The position numbers were made by a program. Shown here piece after piece: positions 6,001 through 18,000 of a stretch of 46,783 bases of DNA. The stretch spans positions 1-46,783 of the forward strand of contig DATDXA010000043.1 in the NCBI GenBank assembly GCA_035289485.1, read 5' to 3'. Position 1 is the first letter of the stretch; each line of letters begins with the position of its first letter. The DNA is from an archaeon. GTDB lineage: Archaea; Iainarchaeota; Iainarchaeia; Iainarchaeales; Iainarchaeaceae.

Positions 6001-9000
6001 GAACTTGCGACCCTGACAACATCTTGGGCGCCGAGCCATGCGGTTGGTTTCTTCTGTTCCCACCATCGCGGGCGTCTGGGGTTTCCCGGTTTCATCATAT
6101 ACTTTTAGCGGCGAATAGGTATTTATTGGTTCAGTGGCGGTGGCTCTGTAGACCTCAAAACCGCTTAGGCCAGCTACAAAGAAACACCTTTGTTAGCGCG
6201 CCTGTGCCGCAGCCTGCTCCGTTTCCTCTTCTTCCTCAATCTGCTTCTTTGCTTTAAGCTTGATTAGCACATCCCTCTTTCTCCACTTCTTCTTGCCGCC
6301 AACGCTGCTGGTTTCCACTAAGCCCACATCCACAAGTGTTTTGATGTATGGGTAGAGGCTGCGGTCATTCTTGTAATCCATCCCGAAGATTTCGCGGATC
6401 CTTCTTAGGATTTCTTCCATCGAAATCCACTCATCAAACCCGAGAACCGATGAAATATGCGCGGCCTGAGTGTGCTCATTCATCTTGATATAATCCCAGA
6501 TGCTGTGAATTTCCTCAATTTCCTCTTTTGCGCCGTAAATGCTGTTGTCAATCTTTGCAGTTGGCGATTTATCCTGTGCGCTTGCGCCTCCGGAAAGTAT
6601 TTTTTTGAGAAAATCAAGCAAAAACATGATAGTAATTACTCTAAAGAGCTTTAAATAATTATCGTGATGGTTGTATTTACCATTTATTGTTGTGGTAATG
6701 TAGTATATTGATAGTAATTACCAGTAATATTACGTCAATAGCCAAATATTTAGGTATATTTGAGTGATTTTGTGCGCTTTTTAGCGATATTTCAATTGAA
6801 AGTGAGCCTATTTTAGCGACTAAAAACGCCTAAGTTAGCAATGCGCGGAGCCAGGTGTTTGCAGTGAGTCCATTTTAGCCGACTGTAAATTATCGCATCA
6901 TTAAAGTGGGTGTATTTTAGGGGGCTTTTACGGGTCAAAATTTCGAATGCGTTTTTGTAAGTTGGTTTTAGCGGCCTTTTGGCTGTTTAAGCCAATTTGT
7001 GCATTGCTTTAACCGAATTGAAACAATAGGGCCAGAAAAATAGAGTTGTTTTATTTAGTTAATTACAAATTAACATTAATAAGTGAGCCTATTTTACGAT
7101 AGGAAATAAGAAAAAAATAGCGGGGAAAGGATTTGAACCTTTGACCTCCGGGTCTCTCAAGCATTCGCCCTTTATTTGTTGTATTTTGCCTTTATTCGCT
7201 TATTTAGCCTGATGGCGGCCTTTATGAGCCCGGCGGGCACTCCTGGCTGCCCTACCCTAATAGATAAACATCACCTAAAATATTGCCGATGATACGTTTA
7301 TTCGCTATGGAGGGAGCGGAGAACCGCTGTAAATCCTATTTATCTTACATGAAATGTGCTTATAATGCTTTATATTGGTCAAAATCCGCAATCTCCAGAT
7401 TTCTCTGGGTGTTTTTGCGTTTTTGAAGCTCCACATTTTTCCGATTGGGATGTGCAAAAGCCCGCATATTTCGGCTATTTTAAGCAAAACACCCTTATCC
7501 TGCTGCGTAACCGTAATATCGCCTTTTACCACGTATCCTTCGGCATCAATAAAACCACTCAAAAAGCCCATTAAATAGTCTTGTGATTTTGAAGTTGCCG
7601 TTTCTAATTTTTGGCTTTTGCTTGCCATTTTTCCATAAAATTCCTTGGAATCGACCCTTAGCCGCAAAGAATCAAATCTTTTGTCCTTTCTTTCTCTTCC
7701 TTTTAACCCGGCTTTTTCTAGTATTTCCTGTAATTTAGCCCTTATATCCCCATCCCGGTCAGAGTTGAGGTAAAACTCAACCCTGTAATGCCTGTCATTT
7801 TTGTTATAATGGGAGTAGCCATCTCCTACAAAAAAACCATCTAGATAGCCTTGATTCAAATCAGATAATTCAAAAACTATTCTATTCACCTCTACCCCGC
7901 AGCATGTGTAAACTGGTGGCTATAGCCTTAAAATACAATATTCGAAATTATTAGCTATGTCCAATATTTTGTGTTTTTAGAGCATTTTCCGGAGCTCTTC
8001 CATCTCTAATTTGAGGTTTTCTATCTTGTTTCCAAGATCTTTAAGCCTTCTCTTATTATCAACAGCCACAAGGGGCTTTCCCGATTCCGGATCCTTAAAG
8101 TTATACTCCGCGGCTATTTCAAAGGGGAATTCAGCCATTCCCTTGCCCGCGCTAAAGAACTCGTGCGTTCCTTCAAATTCCATGCCTTTTTCAAGCTTAG
8201 TTATGTCCTCGGTATGGGTTTCTATCAGTATTTCGGCAATGCGCGAATTCTTTATCTCCCAAGTATAGGAATACCATCCTGTCTTAGTATTTTTGGTTTT
8301 CTGGTAGCATGCAATCCCGCGGTAGTGGAGCCTATTTAGCACAGTCCTTATTTCAGTCACTTTAAGGGGCAGTTTCTTGCCTATTTCCTCATCAGTTACA
8401 GGCCTTTTTTTGTGCTCGCAGATTTTCATGAGTTCAATTGCATATTCCCCGCCCACGGATTTTAGAAAGTCCTGCACTATCTGCAGTTCATAGATTTTCT
8501 TGACGGGGGTTTTTGGCATACTAATCATTTCCTTTGCGCGCTTGTTTTAAAGCCCTATTTTGCCTTCCTAATTTTCTTGCCCTTGTTTACAGGCTCAACC
8601 TCGATTTGGGCTTTTGGAAATTTCTTGGAAAGCTCCTTTCCTTCAAAAATCCTGTCTAGGAATACCGCAAGCGCCGCAATTTCAGAATGCGGCTGAAGCG
8701 TCACAGAGACGTTGTATTCAGATTTTTCATAAACTTCGCGCTCCACTTTTTGCGAGCCGATAATTACAAGAAGCTTCTCTTTTTTGCGCAGCTCCTTTTC
8801 AACGTTCTGCAGCGGCAGCCCATACATTGTAAGGTGAACGCTTGTATATCCATTCTTCGAGTAGTGCTCCAGCCTCTTTTTCCAGCTGTCCACAAACTCT
8901 ATTTCAGCTCCCCTGCCCCATCTCTCATTTATGCTCTCAAGCGTTTGGGGTATGCTCTTGTCTTCTTCCCCTTCAATTTCGATTTTGTCGGCGCCAAATG

Positions 9001-15000: not shown

Positions 15001-18000
15001 GATAATCTTAGAAAGTGGGTTTCTGAAATAGGCTTCACTAATCCATATAAAGAGCAAATTGCCAAGCAGGCATTGACAGAGCGCTTTTAAACCTTATTTC
15101 AATTAGTTCTTCTTAATGGGGCCGTAGCTCAGCCTGGGAGAGCATCCGACGGATACAAGCGTGCCTTAATGGCTTGTTTTGTCCGGGTGAAGCTGAAGAT
15201 AGAGGCAATGGAGTATCATTGTTTAATCTTCCTTGCTCTCAGCAGTGACCGGTATGTCGCGTGTTCAAATCACGCCGGCCCCACATTTTTCATTTCTTTT
15301 GAAAACTTATGTCCCGCTGTAAGCGGGACGGCCGTATGCGCACCCAACAGACGCAACTGTTGTTTTGCACCCTTTTATATTCATTTTCTTCAAGTATATC
15401 TCTGGTGTTCTTTTTGCCTGCGAGAAACTTGTTTGTGATTTTTTTTGCCTTTCTTATTGCCAGCGCAGCATTTGCCGCGCTGCCTGCAATAACTAGTGTC
15501 ACAAATCCAGAGGGCAAGTGGAGTAGTGACTCTTCGCCTTCTTTCAAGGCATCTTATTCTGGAGTGGATGGCTATAGTTATGAGTTTGACGCTTCAGAAG
15601 ACACAATTCCGGACACCACCATTGATTCTACAAGCAGCACCATATTGCCAGGGTCAAAGCAGGACGGCATTTATTGGTTCCATTTGAGGGCACATTCAGC
15701 TGACGGCTGGTCAGAAACCAGGCATTACAAGGTCATGATAGACAGTTCGCGCCCGACAAGGCCAGGTTCCCAGTTGGCGATTCCACAGCCTGACGGAAGC
15801 GTTTTGGTTTCTTGGGTGGCCTCTGAGGACACGCTTTCCGGAATGTCGCACTACAACGTTTACAGGAGCACGCTGCGGTTTGTGAGTGATGGCCAGATAT
15901 CCAGGGAATTTGCAATTACAGATCCGGTAGCCAAGCTTGTTGGCTTGCGTGTCACAGGCACGAGTTTTACTGACACTAATTTTGTCATTGGGGAGGGCTA
16001 CCGCTTCCACTACAAAATAGAGCCTGTCGACGCCGCGGGAAATTCCGGCACAATAAGTTCCGTAGCATCTGTAAAGACCCTTTCTTTCTGCGACCTGGGC
16101 CTTCTTGTTGAGGCTTCACTAGCCGATAGCAACCTTCTTGTCACTGTCAATTCCGACGGCGAATTCAAGAAGGGGCATATTGTAGTGACTGCGCCTGACA
16201 GTTCCAAGGCCGTAATTCTGGAAAGCGCCTCCAACATAAAAGAAGTTTCCGTAGGCTATTATCTTGGCGGAAAGCCAAATGGTGACTACAATGTCTCGTT
16301 TTCCTCATTCGATGCGGATGGCGATGCCTGTTCTGCGGAAAAGATTTTTGTCTATGACACCCTCTCTCCAGAGGTCTCCATTCTGAATCCGCCTTCGTCA
16401 CAGGTGCTTGAAAATGAGGTCAAGTTCACAATTCGGGCCATTGACAATGGTGAAGGTGCGTCCGGAATTTCAAAGGTCTCGCTTTTCATTGTTGATAATT
16501 CCAGTGAAAAGCTCATTGGCGATGCCAAACTTGAGGGTGATGTATATGCCATGGACTGGAACACGCTCAATTATGAAAATGGGCGCTTCAAGGTTATTGC
16601 AAGGGCAACCGACAGGGGCGGGAAGTCCAACGAAGTCTTTGCACTCTACAACATAAGCAACACTTTTTTTGCAAGGGCAGCGGCAGAACAGAATATTTCT
16701 GCTGCCGAGGAGGAGATGAAGTCGGCTGTCGATTATATGGAGAGTCTTCGTGCCAAGAACATCAACGTTGATTCGCTTGTGCGCCTTGCAGCGCAGGCGG
16801 ACTCCAACCTCAACGCCGCAAAGGACCTGTTCTCCAAGAACATTAATTTCGAGCTTGCCGGCCAAAATGCGCAGGCTGCAAAGTCCATGTATTCTTCATT
16901 AAAGTCCAAGTACACAATGAGTTCGTATTCCACTGGGCAGTATTCTTACAACGAGAGCCAGCTTGATGTTTTCTACGCCGCCGCAGGATTGCCGCAAAAT
17001 CTTGTGGCTGATGCAAAGTCGAAAAAAGGGAGCCTGTTCCCGTCGAGAAAACTGGAGATTCTTCAGGTGAAGGCAGACAGCAACACTTTTTACGTTGCGA
17101 ATGTAATCTTGGGTATTTCTAACCGCGACAGGAATTCCGTTTCGTTTATTCTTATAGAGCCATTTCCAAAACAGTTTGCTGATGGCGCTTCCGGTGTCTC
17201 TTCTATAACTCCGTTTGAGGTGCTTCGCAAAGACCCTGTAATCTCTTTTGGGCCGTTTGACATGAATTCGGGCTCCAAGAAGGAAATAATTTACGGGATT
17301 TCAAAGCAACTTACAAAGTCACAGGCAGACAGGCTGATTTCAGGCAAAATCCTAGATTATTATGTCTCGCCGCCCATAGTCCTGAGCCCGAACTCTGATG
17401 TTTCAGGCATAAAGTCAGAGCCTCTTTTCGGTGGGGTTGATTTGCCGCAGATAAATATCAGCAAAGACAATCTCCTCATTGTTGCCATTGCGGGAATATT
17501 AATATTTGGCATACTTTTCGTTCTGCTGCTGCTTGTCATTGCGGCTGTGTACTATTTCGTGATAAGGAAAAGGAAGAAGTGAGCAAATTGCACCTGCAGG
17601 ATTTCTTGAAGGCAACTGCAAAGGAAGTGAACGCAGAGCTTTCGGCATTTTTCCCAAAGAAAATAACTGAAAAATGGGTCTCCAGCTCTTTAGGAAAGCC
17701 AGAGTTCGGCTACGATTTAAATGCCTCGCAAAAGGCGATTGCTGAGCCCATTTGGGATTTCCTCTCAAGGGGCGGAAAGAGATGGCGCCCGGCGCTTCTA
17801 CTTCTTGCATGTGAGGCTGCGGGGGGCTCGCGCAAAAAAGCCATGCCTTTTACAGTAATCCCTGAATTGGTCCACAACGGGACAATAATGGTTGATGATA
17901 TCGAGGACAATTCAACAGTTAGGCGAGGCAAGCCATCCACCCATCTGCTTTTTGGCGTTGATGTCGCGGTGAATGCGGGAAATGCCATGTACTACATTCC

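Follow-up and report, generated by a model that had tools for sequence, protein, structure and literature searches.

Small LAGLIDADG homing endonuclease genes lie tail-first against tRNA genes in this archaeal genome, raising the question of whether they have simply lodged beside conserved genes, or belong to larger units that take in part of the tRNA. The window, a contig of 46,783 nt, carries three such genes (Table 1), all matching Pfam LAGLIDADG_3 above the cut-off and each with both LAGLIDADG motifs and their acidic residues, as read from the translations.

Table 1. Features of the three nuclease–tRNA loci and an internal comparator
Position	Strand	Feature	Basis or remark
7926..7935	-	TATA-like box TATTTTAAGG	~25 nt upstream of relic; read from sequence
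7892..7901	-	relic of former tRNAi 5′ end, TGCGGGGTAG	9/10 match to AGCGGGGTAG of uninterrupted relatives
7305..7889	-	LAGLIDADG homing endonuclease gene, 194 aa, GTG start	Pfam PF14528, E 6.4e-12
7303..7306	-	tRNAi-Met exon 1, AGCG, nt 1-4	restores acceptor strand AGCGGGG
7258..7302	-	BHB intron, tRNAi position 4/5, 45 nt	strict 3-4-3 motif; previously unseen
7223..7257	-	tRNAi-Met exon 2, nt 5-37	sequence, relatives' alleles
7154..7222	-	canonical 37/38 intron of tRNAi, 69 nt	aragorn -i; central helix CTCA/TGAG
7118..7153	-	tRNAi-Met exon 3, nt 38-73	sequence
10930..11005	+	tRNA-Lys(TTT), intron-less, no adjoining nuclease gene	internal comparator
13532..14182	+	LAGLIDADG homing endonuclease gene HEG1, 216 aa	Pfam, E 5.7e-11
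14185..14194	+	TATA-like box GTATTTAAAG	26 nt upstream of tRNA-Lys(CTT), begins 3 nt past HEG1 stop
14221..14251	+	tRNA-Lys(CTT) exon 1, nt 1-30	Rfam match, exon solution
14252..14285	+	BHB intron 30/31, 34 nt	central helix CACT/GGTG, outer 4 bp, inner 6 bp
14286..14292	+	tRNA-Lys(CTT) micro-exon 2, nt 31-37, GCTCTTA	exon solution
14293..14334	+	intron 37/38 of tRNA-Lys(CTT), 42 nt	central helix 3/4, inner 7 bp
14335..14370	+	tRNA-Lys(CTT) exon 3	Rfam, exon solution
14395..14416	+	copy of genome-wide promoter-upstream motif, …GACACCGGCA…	ends 42 nt upstream of HEG2 ATG
14458..15090	+	LAGLIDADG homing endonuclease gene HEG2, 210 aa	Pfam, E 1.1e-11
15118..15148	+	tRNA-Phe(GAA) exon 1, nt 1-30	intron-less orthologues in 12 genomes; exon solution
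15149..15191	+	BHB intron 30/31 of tRNA-Phe, 43 nt	central helix CATC/GGTG 4/4, inner 6 bp
15192..15198	+	tRNA-Phe(GAA) micro-exon 2, GCTGAAG	exon solution
15199..15247	+	intron 37/38 of tRNA-Phe, 49 nt, relaxed BHB	homologous intron in HEG-less G043
15248..15283	+	tRNA-Phe(GAA) exon 3	sequence, exon solution

Association of LAGLIDADG genes with tRNA genes

In each of the three intact genes the ORF ends 0–38 nt from a downstream, co-oriented tRNA gene. A census of the whole genome, in which an iterated HMM was run on six-frame ORFs, gave 11 short LAGLIDADG ORFs and four long, intein-type ones. Eight of the 11 lie 0–38 nt from a tRNA called genome-wide by aragorn -i, with the tRNA on the 3′ side of the ORF in all eight (five tandem, three convergent), against a mean of 0.50 and a maximum of five ORFs within 100 nt of a tRNA in 20,000 random placements. 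The docking and its polarity, as described in the first-pass annotation, are thus borne out, and 11 of the 12 free-standing ORFs counted there were recovered, the difference implying that one was missed by the HMM used here. The pattern also holds across the order, with tRNA-Phe following all 16 HEG2 orthologues that have sequence past the stop codon, and an intron-bearing tRNA following 12 of 15 HEG1 orthologues.

What the picture of free-standing genes docking onto tRNAs omitted is the tRNA itself, with which the nuclease gene appears to travel and which seems to have been rebuilt with extra bulge-helix-bulge (BHB) introns, at position 4/5 in tRNAi and at 30/31 in tRNA-Lys and tRNA-Phe. The three tRNAs beside the window's LAGLIDADG genes had been mis-annotated; the two that had been doubted are both real, yet their exon boundaries and identities differ from those first assigned. 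Elsewhere in the genome, a tRNA at C3:45625-45730 given as Phe reads as tRNA-Met/Ile2(CAT) with a canonical intron.

The tRNAi-Met locus

The nuclease gene at this locus had been placed 46 nt from tRNA-Met, but the gap is zero: its stop codon TAG (7307-7305) overlaps tRNAi nt 1-2 within exon AGCG (7306-7303), after which comes a 45-nt BHB intron. The acceptor strand so divided is uninterrupted in 29 of the 30 relatives' tRNAi alleles fetched. The intron has a central helix ATAG/CTAT, bulges CG|A and TA|G and an inner helix of 8 bp; its motif also forms in the MFE fold, and is present at nine loci, where both the inner and the outer helices covary. At the 37/38 intron, contigs from other organisms skip the 69 nt.

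Relics similar to this one are found immediately before the ORF or spacer in G054, L111, L113, L114, L115 and L117, and in five ORF-less alleles, while comparable AT-rich boxes precede the relic in G054 and in ORF-less tRNAi alleles. The TATTTTAAGG box is a putative original tRNAi promoter that may now drive relic, ORF and tRNA together, and, to judge from the sequence, the nuclease gene probably lies inside the tRNA transcription unit, flanked by the relic of the earlier 5′ end on one side and the new 5′ exon on the other.

The 4/5 intron is found in seven of 196 genomes of the order, from five families, and in none of six other same-genus genomes. A nuclease ORF is present at tRNAi only in alleles with this intron, namely in the genome under study (G000) and in G054, where the orthologue is 48% identical and occupies the same position; in five alleles the ORF is gone yet the intron is kept. 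Outside the order, 10 of 11 homologue-bearing loci have the homologue at tRNAi, with mini-introns at 4/5, 10/11 or in the D-loop, and tRNA 5′-end relics upstream of the ORF.

The order relic-exon, ORF, new exon, mini-intron, exon 2 is also the topology predicted by exon duplication, in which BHB introns of the tRNA genes would once have contained the ORFs, in the manner of archaeal rRNA introns, and duplication of the 5′ exon at the intron's 3′ end would have left them outside; the mini-introns would then be the leftover 3′ part of a large intron, and the relic the old exon 1. This accords with the L111 relic, which repeats the central-helix and bulge letters of the functional exon. However, no valid BHB forms between relic and exon 2 in G000, the ORF lies inside an intron in none of ~40 loci examined, and at tRNA-Lys and tRNA-Phe it is upstream of a promoter-like box with no relic seen, making such an origin unlikely. 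L111 and L117 were considered as loci with intron-borne ORFs and rejected, each having a complete proximal 5′ exon.

HEG1 and tRNA-Lys(CTT)

HEG1 has orthologues in 14 other genomes (40–76% identity). The tRNA downstream gives an Rfam match of 44.5 bits across 14221-14370, and the exon solution identifies it as Lys(CTT) with two introns, the aragorn call of Phe(aaa) being wrong. The GTATTTAAAG box, conserved in G088, is a candidate promoter for this tRNA. Of the nine tRNA-Lys loci analysed that are linked to HEG1, seven share the position and motif of the 30/31 intron, and their inner helices covary; HEG-less tRNA-Lys(CTT) calls comprise 14 without and one with an intron. Within the genus all six genomes are concordant: G000, G123, G167 and G088 have both HEG1 and the tRNA-Lys(CTT) introns, G043 and G117 neither.

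Compared with HEG-less G043, tRNA-Lys(CTT) of G000 differs at 11/45 positions in nt 1-43 and 0/30 in nt 44-73; compared with HEG-bearing G056, from another family, the figures are 1/44 and 5/30. The anticodon stem CTTGG/CCAAG is common to HEG-bearing alleles of several families, and is not found in the in-genus HEG-less alleles. The gene looks like a mosaic, which would favour import of the tRNA segment with the nuclease gene, although the argument is weakened by conservation of the tRNA-Lys 3′ half among isoacceptors within the genus.

HEG2 and tRNA-Phe(GAA)

HEG2 orthologues occur in a further 16 genomes from 11 families (45–69% identity), giving a frequency of 17/196 genomes. The gene at 15118-15284, regarded earlier as an atypical tRNA called by aragorn only, is a real tRNA-Phe(GAA) interrupted at 30/31 and again at 37/38 by introns, and the safe count of docked ORFs consequently rises from seven to eight. 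Introns are present in 13 of the 16 downstream tRNA-Phe genes, and 19 of 19 tRNA-Phe calls at loci lacking a LAGLIDADG match are intron-less. Here, as in the other counts across genomes, the significance is overstated because related genomes are not independent. G043, of the same genus, has neither HEG2 nor the 30/31 intron, and keeps that at 37/38.

The first-pass reading of insertion next to a conserved gene can be retained as a rival, whereby nuclease genes merely insert beside tRNA genes (using conserved targets, terminators or 3′-end structures) and the introns are unrelated lineage features. Free-standing nuclease genes are known from within phage tRNA clusters, and five of the eight docked tRNAs here (three Arg, Ile and Met/Ile2-CAT) have no non-canonical intron. 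At L130, L131 and L133, moreover, HEG2 orthologues that retain both catalytic motifs lie upstream of an intron-less tRNA-Phe, so nuclease gene and tRNA can coexist without an intron, unless the tRNA gene is protected by point differences. Against this, presence of the extra introns follows that of the nuclease gene, both between families and inside the genus, and only the tRNA on the downstream side of the ORF is affected: upstream of HEG2, tRNA-Lys is intron-less in all six loci without a second LAGLIDADG ORF. Insertion alone is accordingly judged improbable.

The strict adjacency and co-orientation of gene and intron-bearing tRNA would suit LAGLIDADG proteins that serve as maturase-like cofactors or regulators in processing the adjacent odd pre-tRNAs, and not as DNA endonucleases; LAGLIDADG maturases exist for group I introns. 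Yet the introns survive deletion of the ORF or loss of catalytic residues, as in L134 and L135, where the catalytic Asp is lost and the intron is still there. The BHB motifs are of the canonical type that the host endonuclease cleaves, most nuclease copies retain the catalytic Asp/Glu, and the distribution is patchy, like that of a mobile element, all of which leaves a helper role very hard to credit.

A proposed homing cycle

The explanation towards which the evidence leans slightly is that these are mobile modules, each composed of a LAGLIDADG gene and the adjoining intron-split target tRNA, resembling phage 'collaborative homing'. It draws on the anatomy of the loci, the BHB covariation, the co-occurrence across genomes and the patchy distribution. 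Each of the three genes would be the motor of a module that takes in the adjacent part of the downstream tRNA gene, with one or two extra BHB introns. The enzyme would cleave the uninterrupted tRNA gene in a genome without the module, and repair off the module-bearing copy would import the nuclease gene, the neighbouring tRNA segment and the intron. By splitting the target site, the intron (at 4/5 for tRNAi and at 30/31, alone or joined by 37/38, for tRNA-Lys and tRNA-Phe) would render the carrier immune, while in vivo splicing by the host tRNA-splicing endonuclease, which this genome encodes, would keep the essential tRNA functional.

At tRNAi the module would have entered within the first ~10 nt of the gene, leaving the old 5′ end as a decaying relic at the promoter, and the ORF would be read from the tRNA's own transcript. 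Persistence of the intron in alleles with a degenerate or missing ORF fits such a cycle. The five ORF-less tRNAi alleles, however, all have a 10–12 nt spacer from relic to new exon, a uniformity more easily explained by an ORF-less ancestral state with later arrival of the ORF.

Relation to known systems

Phage collaborative (trans) homing is alike in that the nuclease gene lies outside the intron and beside the intron-bearing gene, the intron is ORF-less, and gene and intron co-occur. It differs in having a ribozyme (group I intron), whereas the BHB intron here is cut by a host protein enzyme; the host gene here is a tRNA in a DPANN archaeon, the enzyme is a LAGLIDADG protein, and the intron site is the presumed target. 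Archaeal rRNA introns, which encode LAGLIDADG homing endonucleases of the I-DmoI type, share the enzyme family, archaeal host, stable-RNA target gene and BHB intron for the tRNA splicing endonuclease, but here tRNA genes are the hosts, the introns measure 14–49 nt and the ORF lies outside them. Group I introns with LAGLIDADG ORFs have been described in archaeal rRNA genes, with 39/39 in rRNA genes and none in tRNA (PMC6125680). Group I intron models had no match anywhere in the window.

In fungal mitochondrial atp6/cox genes, homing endonuclease genes enter the end of the host gene, and bring a replacement for the displaced end. The tRNAi ORF similarly lies between an upstream relic of the old start and a downstream new functional start, but here it is an RNA gene whose end has been replaced, and the new end is intron-split rather than synonymously re-coded or, in other lineages, is altered by compensated or G-U changes.

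Multi-intron tRNA genes of Thermoproteales with non-canonical BHB introns were reportedly described by Sugahara, Fujishima and colleagues, who are said to have proposed intron transposition, and Randau and Soll reportedly suggested that 'tRNA genes in pieces' protect against mobile elements. The tRNAs studied here are alike in having several introns each, positions such as 4/5, 22/23 and 30/31, and strict hBHBh′ motifs. They differ in that a specific nuclease gene accompanies the introns, no nuclease gene tied to Thermoproteales-type tRNA introns having been found in the literature searched. Extra introns that are linked to a nuclease, and absent in relatives without it, point to a route by which archaeal tRNA genes acquire introns.

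Three LAGLIDADG genes and the tRNA genes at their 3' ends

Three short ORFs of the window, ORF 1, HEG1 and HEG2 (HEG, LAGLIDADG homing endonuclease gene), score 46, 43 and 45.3 bits against PF14528, for which the curated cut-off is 22.5 bits. In translation both motifs of each end in a catalytic Asp/Glu: FFVGDGY and FIDAEGY in ORF 1, LIGDGC and WDTDGS in HEG1, IIGDGH and ADTDGS in HEG2. PDB sequence searches for a near solved relative returned weak matches (I-AniI, E 1e-4) or none. The three nucleases are probably active. Their neighbours in the window include TFE-alpha, aTrm56, SerRS and a class II LysRS. 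The latter (11148-13316), lying between tRNA-Lys(TTT) and the tRNA-Lys(CTT) module, carries a C-terminal fusion to an AlaX/ThrRS-type editing-like domain, as seen from matches to the end of tRNA-synt_2c and to tRNA_SAD. Elsewhere in the window, a tyrosine recombinase (1266-3374; Phage_integrase with a SAM-like N-terminal domain) is split by a LAGLIDADG intein, recognised by Intein_splicing and LAGLIDADG_3 matches.

The first-pass annotation had counted twelve free-standing LAGLIDADG ORFs in this genome (G000; 1.16 Mb in 64 contigs). An iterated HMM search over six-frame ORFs recovered 11 short ones, together with four long, intein-type ORFs; the twelfth did not reappear. The docking claimed for these genes held: 8 of the 11 adjoin a tRNA gene within 0-38 nt, and in 8/8 the tRNA lies on the 3' side of the ORF (five tandem, three convergent). 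Random placement (20,000 rounds) put a mean of 0.50 ORFs, and at most 5, within 100 nt of a tRNA.

Two docked tRNAs on contig C3 have features of their own. A LAGLIDADG reading frame encloses the whole of tRNA-Arg(GCG) (C3:34950-35025) in its 3' end. In the acceptor stem of this tRNA, GCTTCCG on the 5' side is matched to CGGGGGC with two G-U pairs, the corresponding strand of tRNA-Arg(CCG) on C63 being GCCCCCG; these changes may alter a target while keeping the helix. At C3:45625-45730, where aragorn calls 'tRNA-Phe(GAA) with intron at 32/33', a better reading is tRNA-Met/Ile2(CAT), whose intron has the canonical 37/38 position and a central helix TTCA/TGAA. The final ~18 codons of the convergent LAGLIDADG ORF run antisense to the 3' exon of this tRNA and to half its intron.

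Features of the window and related elements elsewhere in the genome
Feature	Location	Strand	Basis
LAGLIDADG ORF 1	7305-7889	-	significant LAGLIDADG_3 match
LAGLIDADG ORF 2 (HEG1)	13532-14182	+	significant LAGLIDADG_3 match
LAGLIDADG ORF 3 (HEG2)	14458-15090	+	significant LAGLIDADG_3 match
tRNA-Lys(CTT) exons	14221-14251, 14286-14292, 14335-14370	+	
tRNA-Phe(GAA) exons	15118-15148, 15192-15198, 15248-15283	+	
Further promoter-upstream motif copies	C3:46618, C4:10260, C14:15686, C21:29522, C24:12879, C27:294		
Further promoter-upstream motif copies	C29:30230, C31:57224, C34:6870, C38:1352, C47:13340, C52:2973		
Promoter and short-ORF regions upstream of LAGLIDADG ORFs	C34:~6925-7120, C52:~3155-3350, C27:~70-270, C5, C21		

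Calling of the tRNA genes

A default tRNA scan of the window finds tRNA-Lys(TTT) alone (10930-11005). Rfam adds a tRNA at 14221-14370, identified here as tRNA-Lys(CTT), and aragorn with introns allowed reports four tRNAs on this contig and 43 in the genome. Its tRNA-Met model (7117-7262) has an acceptor stem with two mismatches and one G-U pair. The call at 15118-15284, which had been doubted as atypical, proved to be a real tRNA-Phe(GAA): 12 relatives have an intron-less orthologue with matching 5' and 3' parts. Other long-'intron' tRNAs of the genome (Leu-CAA, Tyr, Met on C29, Pro-CGG and Arg-CCG) yielded no convincing 30/31-type solution with a two-intron solver.

The initiator tRNA: a split gene with a rebuilt start

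In 29 of 30 relatives fetched, the 5' end of the initiator tRNA (tRNAi) is uninterrupted and reads AGC(G/A)(G/A)G(G/A)T. In G000 the first four letters, AGCG (7306-7303), overlap the TAG stop of ORF 1, and 45 nt part them from GGGTAGGGC… (starting at 7257). These 45 nt, an intron at position 4/5, form a textbook bulge-helix-bulge (BHB) motif with a central helix ATAG/CTAT, bulges CG|A and TA|G and an 8-bp inner helix, which is recovered in an unconstrained fold too. As G000 has a single initiator-type anticodon arm, this gene must function. Directly before the ORF, twelve nt upstream of its GTG start and ~25 nt past a TATA-like box, lies TGCGGGGTAG (7901-7892), matching the uninterrupted tRNA 5' end at 9 of 10 letters and read as the decayed relic of the old start. 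The orthologue of ORF 1 in genome G054 (48% identical) has the same layout. Were ORF 1 instead to lie within a single giant intron of tRNAi, exon 1 being the distal GCGGGG, a tRNA-correct junction should form a BHB, and 0 of 7 do so; the proximal AGCG is therefore taken as exon 1 in place of the distal copy. Behind the convergent ORFs of this genome, the sole relic-like 8-mer (C52:3181) falls within a conserved small ORF common to C34, and hence is no relic.

Pattern searching matched the 4/5 arrangement in 7 of the 196 genomes of the order, spanning five families; the six other same-genus genomes gave no match. With two loci from outside the order, nine alleles have all four central pairs; the inner helices vary in sequence and keep their complementarity in seven and only one inner pair in two, helix complementarity here and at the Lys and Phe introns being a script count, not a covariation statistic. 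The outer helix, a pairing of leader with exon 2, tracks A/G at tRNA position 9. Five of these genomes have the 4/5 intron without an ORF, and an AGCGGGG-like element (perfect in one, decayed in four) stands 10-12 nt before ATAGCG; a spacer so uniform is easier to derive from an ORF-less ancestor than from five separate deletions. When six precursors with the 4/5 intron are folded for minimum energy, the element pairs with the 3' acceptor strand, and it may still substitute for an acceptor strand before processing.

Homologues outside the order were found with a two-sequence profile run on genome contigs, a single-protein query having given no match, and in 10 of 11 loci the gene sits at tRNAi. 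The TAG stop overlaps tRNA nucleotides 1-2 in four of them (L112, L113, L115 and L118), as in G000 and G054. Mini-introns occur at 4/5 (L118, L110), at 10/11 (L111, L114, L115) and in the D-loop (L112), none being present in L113 and L117. Decayed tRNA 5'-end relics lie directly before the ORF in L111, L113, L114, L115 and L117, and in L116 the ORF is convergent with a tRNAi-like 3' end.

tRNA-Lys(CTT) and HEG1

The 30/31 intron of tRNA-Lys(CTT) forms a strict BHB (central pairs 4/4), and a second intron at 37/38 has three of the four central pairs. HEG1 has homologues in 117 of the 196 genomes. Among its 15 closest relatives an intron-bearing tRNA comes next in 12, one contig ending too early and two cases being ambiguous; it is tRNA-Lys wherever alignment settles its identity. 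Within the genus, presence of HEG1 and of Lys(CTT) introns agrees fully across the six readable genomes: both occur in G000, G123, G167 and G088, and neither in G043 and G117.

The allele itself is a mosaic. Compared with the HEG-less G043, the G000 gene differs at 11/45 over nucleotides 1-43 and at 0/30 over nucleotides 44-73; compared with G056, which is HEG-bearing and belongs to another family, it shows the reverse (1/44, then 5/30). The anticodon stem CTTGG/CCAAG is common to HEG-bearing alleles of several families and absent from in-genus HEG-less alleles. This looks like a conversion tract that starts at the nuclease gene and reaches the anticodon arm, with a break near nucleotide 43, an argument that is weak on its own because, within the genus, tRNA-Lys isoacceptors keep a conserved 3' half. 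The intron-less tRNA-Lys(TTT) of the same window differs from Lys(CTT) chiefly in the anticodon arm, and this difference and the mosaic are no more than indirect hints that cleavage may fall at the intron site.

tRNA-Phe(GAA) and HEG2

tRNA-Phe(GAA) has the same pair of introns, a strict BHB at 30/31 (central pairs 4/4) and a relaxed one at 37/38 (3/4). HEG2 orthologues occur in 17 of the 196 genomes (11 families), and the six same-genus genomes have none; both motifs are kept in 14 of the 17. In all 16 loci with sequence past the stop, a tRNA-Phe follows 17-92 nt downstream on the same strand, and 13 of the 16 have introns, mostly at 30/31 and 37/38. In six of six loci lacking a second LAGLIDADG ORF the tRNA-Lys upstream of HEG2 is intron-less, so each nuclease gene pairs with the tRNA at its own 3' end. 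The corresponding gene of G043 shows that the 37/38 intron is older than the module and that the 30/31 intron arrived with it. Loss of catalytic residues was expected beside an intron-less tRNA-Phe; a motif check of the orthologues found both motifs intact in the three such loci (L130, L131 and L133).

Introns and nuclease genes across genomes

In HEG-less relatives the cluster Lys(TTT)-Lys(CTT)-Phe(GAA) is compact and free of introns. Across 30 cluster loci, two of which overlap one genome region, LAGLIDADG matches were confined to G000 and G056; calls of tRNA-Lys(CTT) were intron-less in 14 cases and intron-bearing in one, with no nuclease gene nearby, and all 19 tRNA-Phe calls were intron-less. 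Co-occurrence counts support co-inheritance of gene and intron, with exceptions both ways: the three loci with HEG2 and an intron-less tRNA-Phe, and several alleles with an intron and no gene. The association of nuclease gene, intron and tRNA is well supported. In four DNA runs (X2, X3, X5 and X6), contigs identical to the window span all three ORFs, and no HEG-less allele of the same strain was found; joints skipping 69, 94, 110, 4113 nt and others have short sides, and derive from other organisms' intron-less or clustered tRNAs.

Shared upstream motif and repeats

A conserved motif, …G[GA]CACCGGCAC[CT]GAA…, often preceded by a hairpin GTATGG…CCATAC, has a copy at 14395-14416. It stands ahead of 11 genes, its end 25-55 nt (mostly 40-42) from the start codon, and a TATA-like box lies in the gap. 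Five of these genes encode LAGLIDADG proteins, and the rest include a Hef-like helicase and small ORFs; the motif may serve as a common promoter-upstream element or belong to the mobile cassette. Upstream of several longer LAGLIDADG ORFs there are a conserved promoter and a short ORF, whose ribosome-binding site, GGAGGTGAT, is strong; C34 and C52 are almost identical over this region. A ~40-nt repeat, TAAGCGGGACGGCCGTATGCGCACCCAAC…GACGCAAC, lies directly downstream of tRNA-Phe (15300-15350) and again at C14:~15700-15745, beside a copy of the motif.

Mechanism and significance

Archaeal introns with LAGLIDADG ORFs are known from rRNA genes. One survey places 39 of 39 archaeal group I introns there (PMC6125680). 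A group I intron carrying a HEG was rejected as a reading of the window: Rfam gave no Intron_gpI match across 6900-15600, at the gathering threshold or at E<=10, and the non-coding flank of the ORF is just ~50 nt. The closest described mechanism is phage collaborative (trans) homing, which likewise joins a free-standing nuclease gene to an adjacent ORF-less intron and passes both on together; as read from the genes, all three modules have such a nuclease gene adjoining an ORF-less intron in a conserved gene. On balance, we lean slightly towards a collaborative-homing-like module of nuclease gene and intron-split tRNA, in which the immunity element would be either a tRNA intron spliced by protein or a tRNA 5' end that has been rebuilt. 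The full-text literature, subscription journals aside, yielded no report that connects archaeal tRNA introns with LAGLIDADG genes. G000 encodes a splicing endonuclease of 185 aa (C20:6508-6768). Against the module stand the intact motifs before intron-less tRNA-Phe in L130, L131 and L133, the uniform spacer of the five ORF-less tRNAi alleles, and five of the eight docked tRNAs of G000, which have no non-canonical intron.

A broader reading, tentative when taken as a whole, is that HEGs give rise to the non-canonical BHB introns of archaeal tRNA genes and spread them. Every nuclease lineage would be bound to one tRNA species; its target would be the uninterrupted gene; the immunity device carried along would be an intron, or a split or rebuilt gene end; and the tRNAi nuclease would be translated from the pre-tRNA leader. 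The ORF 1 stop (7305-7307) covers tRNAi positions -1 to +2 (tRNA start 7306), so that an RNase P cut at +1 would fall within the stop codon and release a non-stop mRNA, coupling nuclease expression to tRNA processing.

Standard tRNA finders miss or mis-call the tRNAs of these modules, the initiator 5' end, Lys(CTT) and Phe(GAA) all being wrong here, and DPANN tRNA complements are thus under-counted wherever such modules occur. Odd-position intron gain and tRNA gene fragmentation in archaea have been debated for two decades, and to our knowledge no agent has been known. Here, specific extra introns of three essential tRNAs are linked, by position and by phylogeny, to a specific nuclease gene, and empty and occupied alleles are both present in close relatives, which opens the question to bench tests with short synthetic substrates. 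The broader reading, if true, would provide a concrete, testable origin of tRNA genes 'in pieces'.
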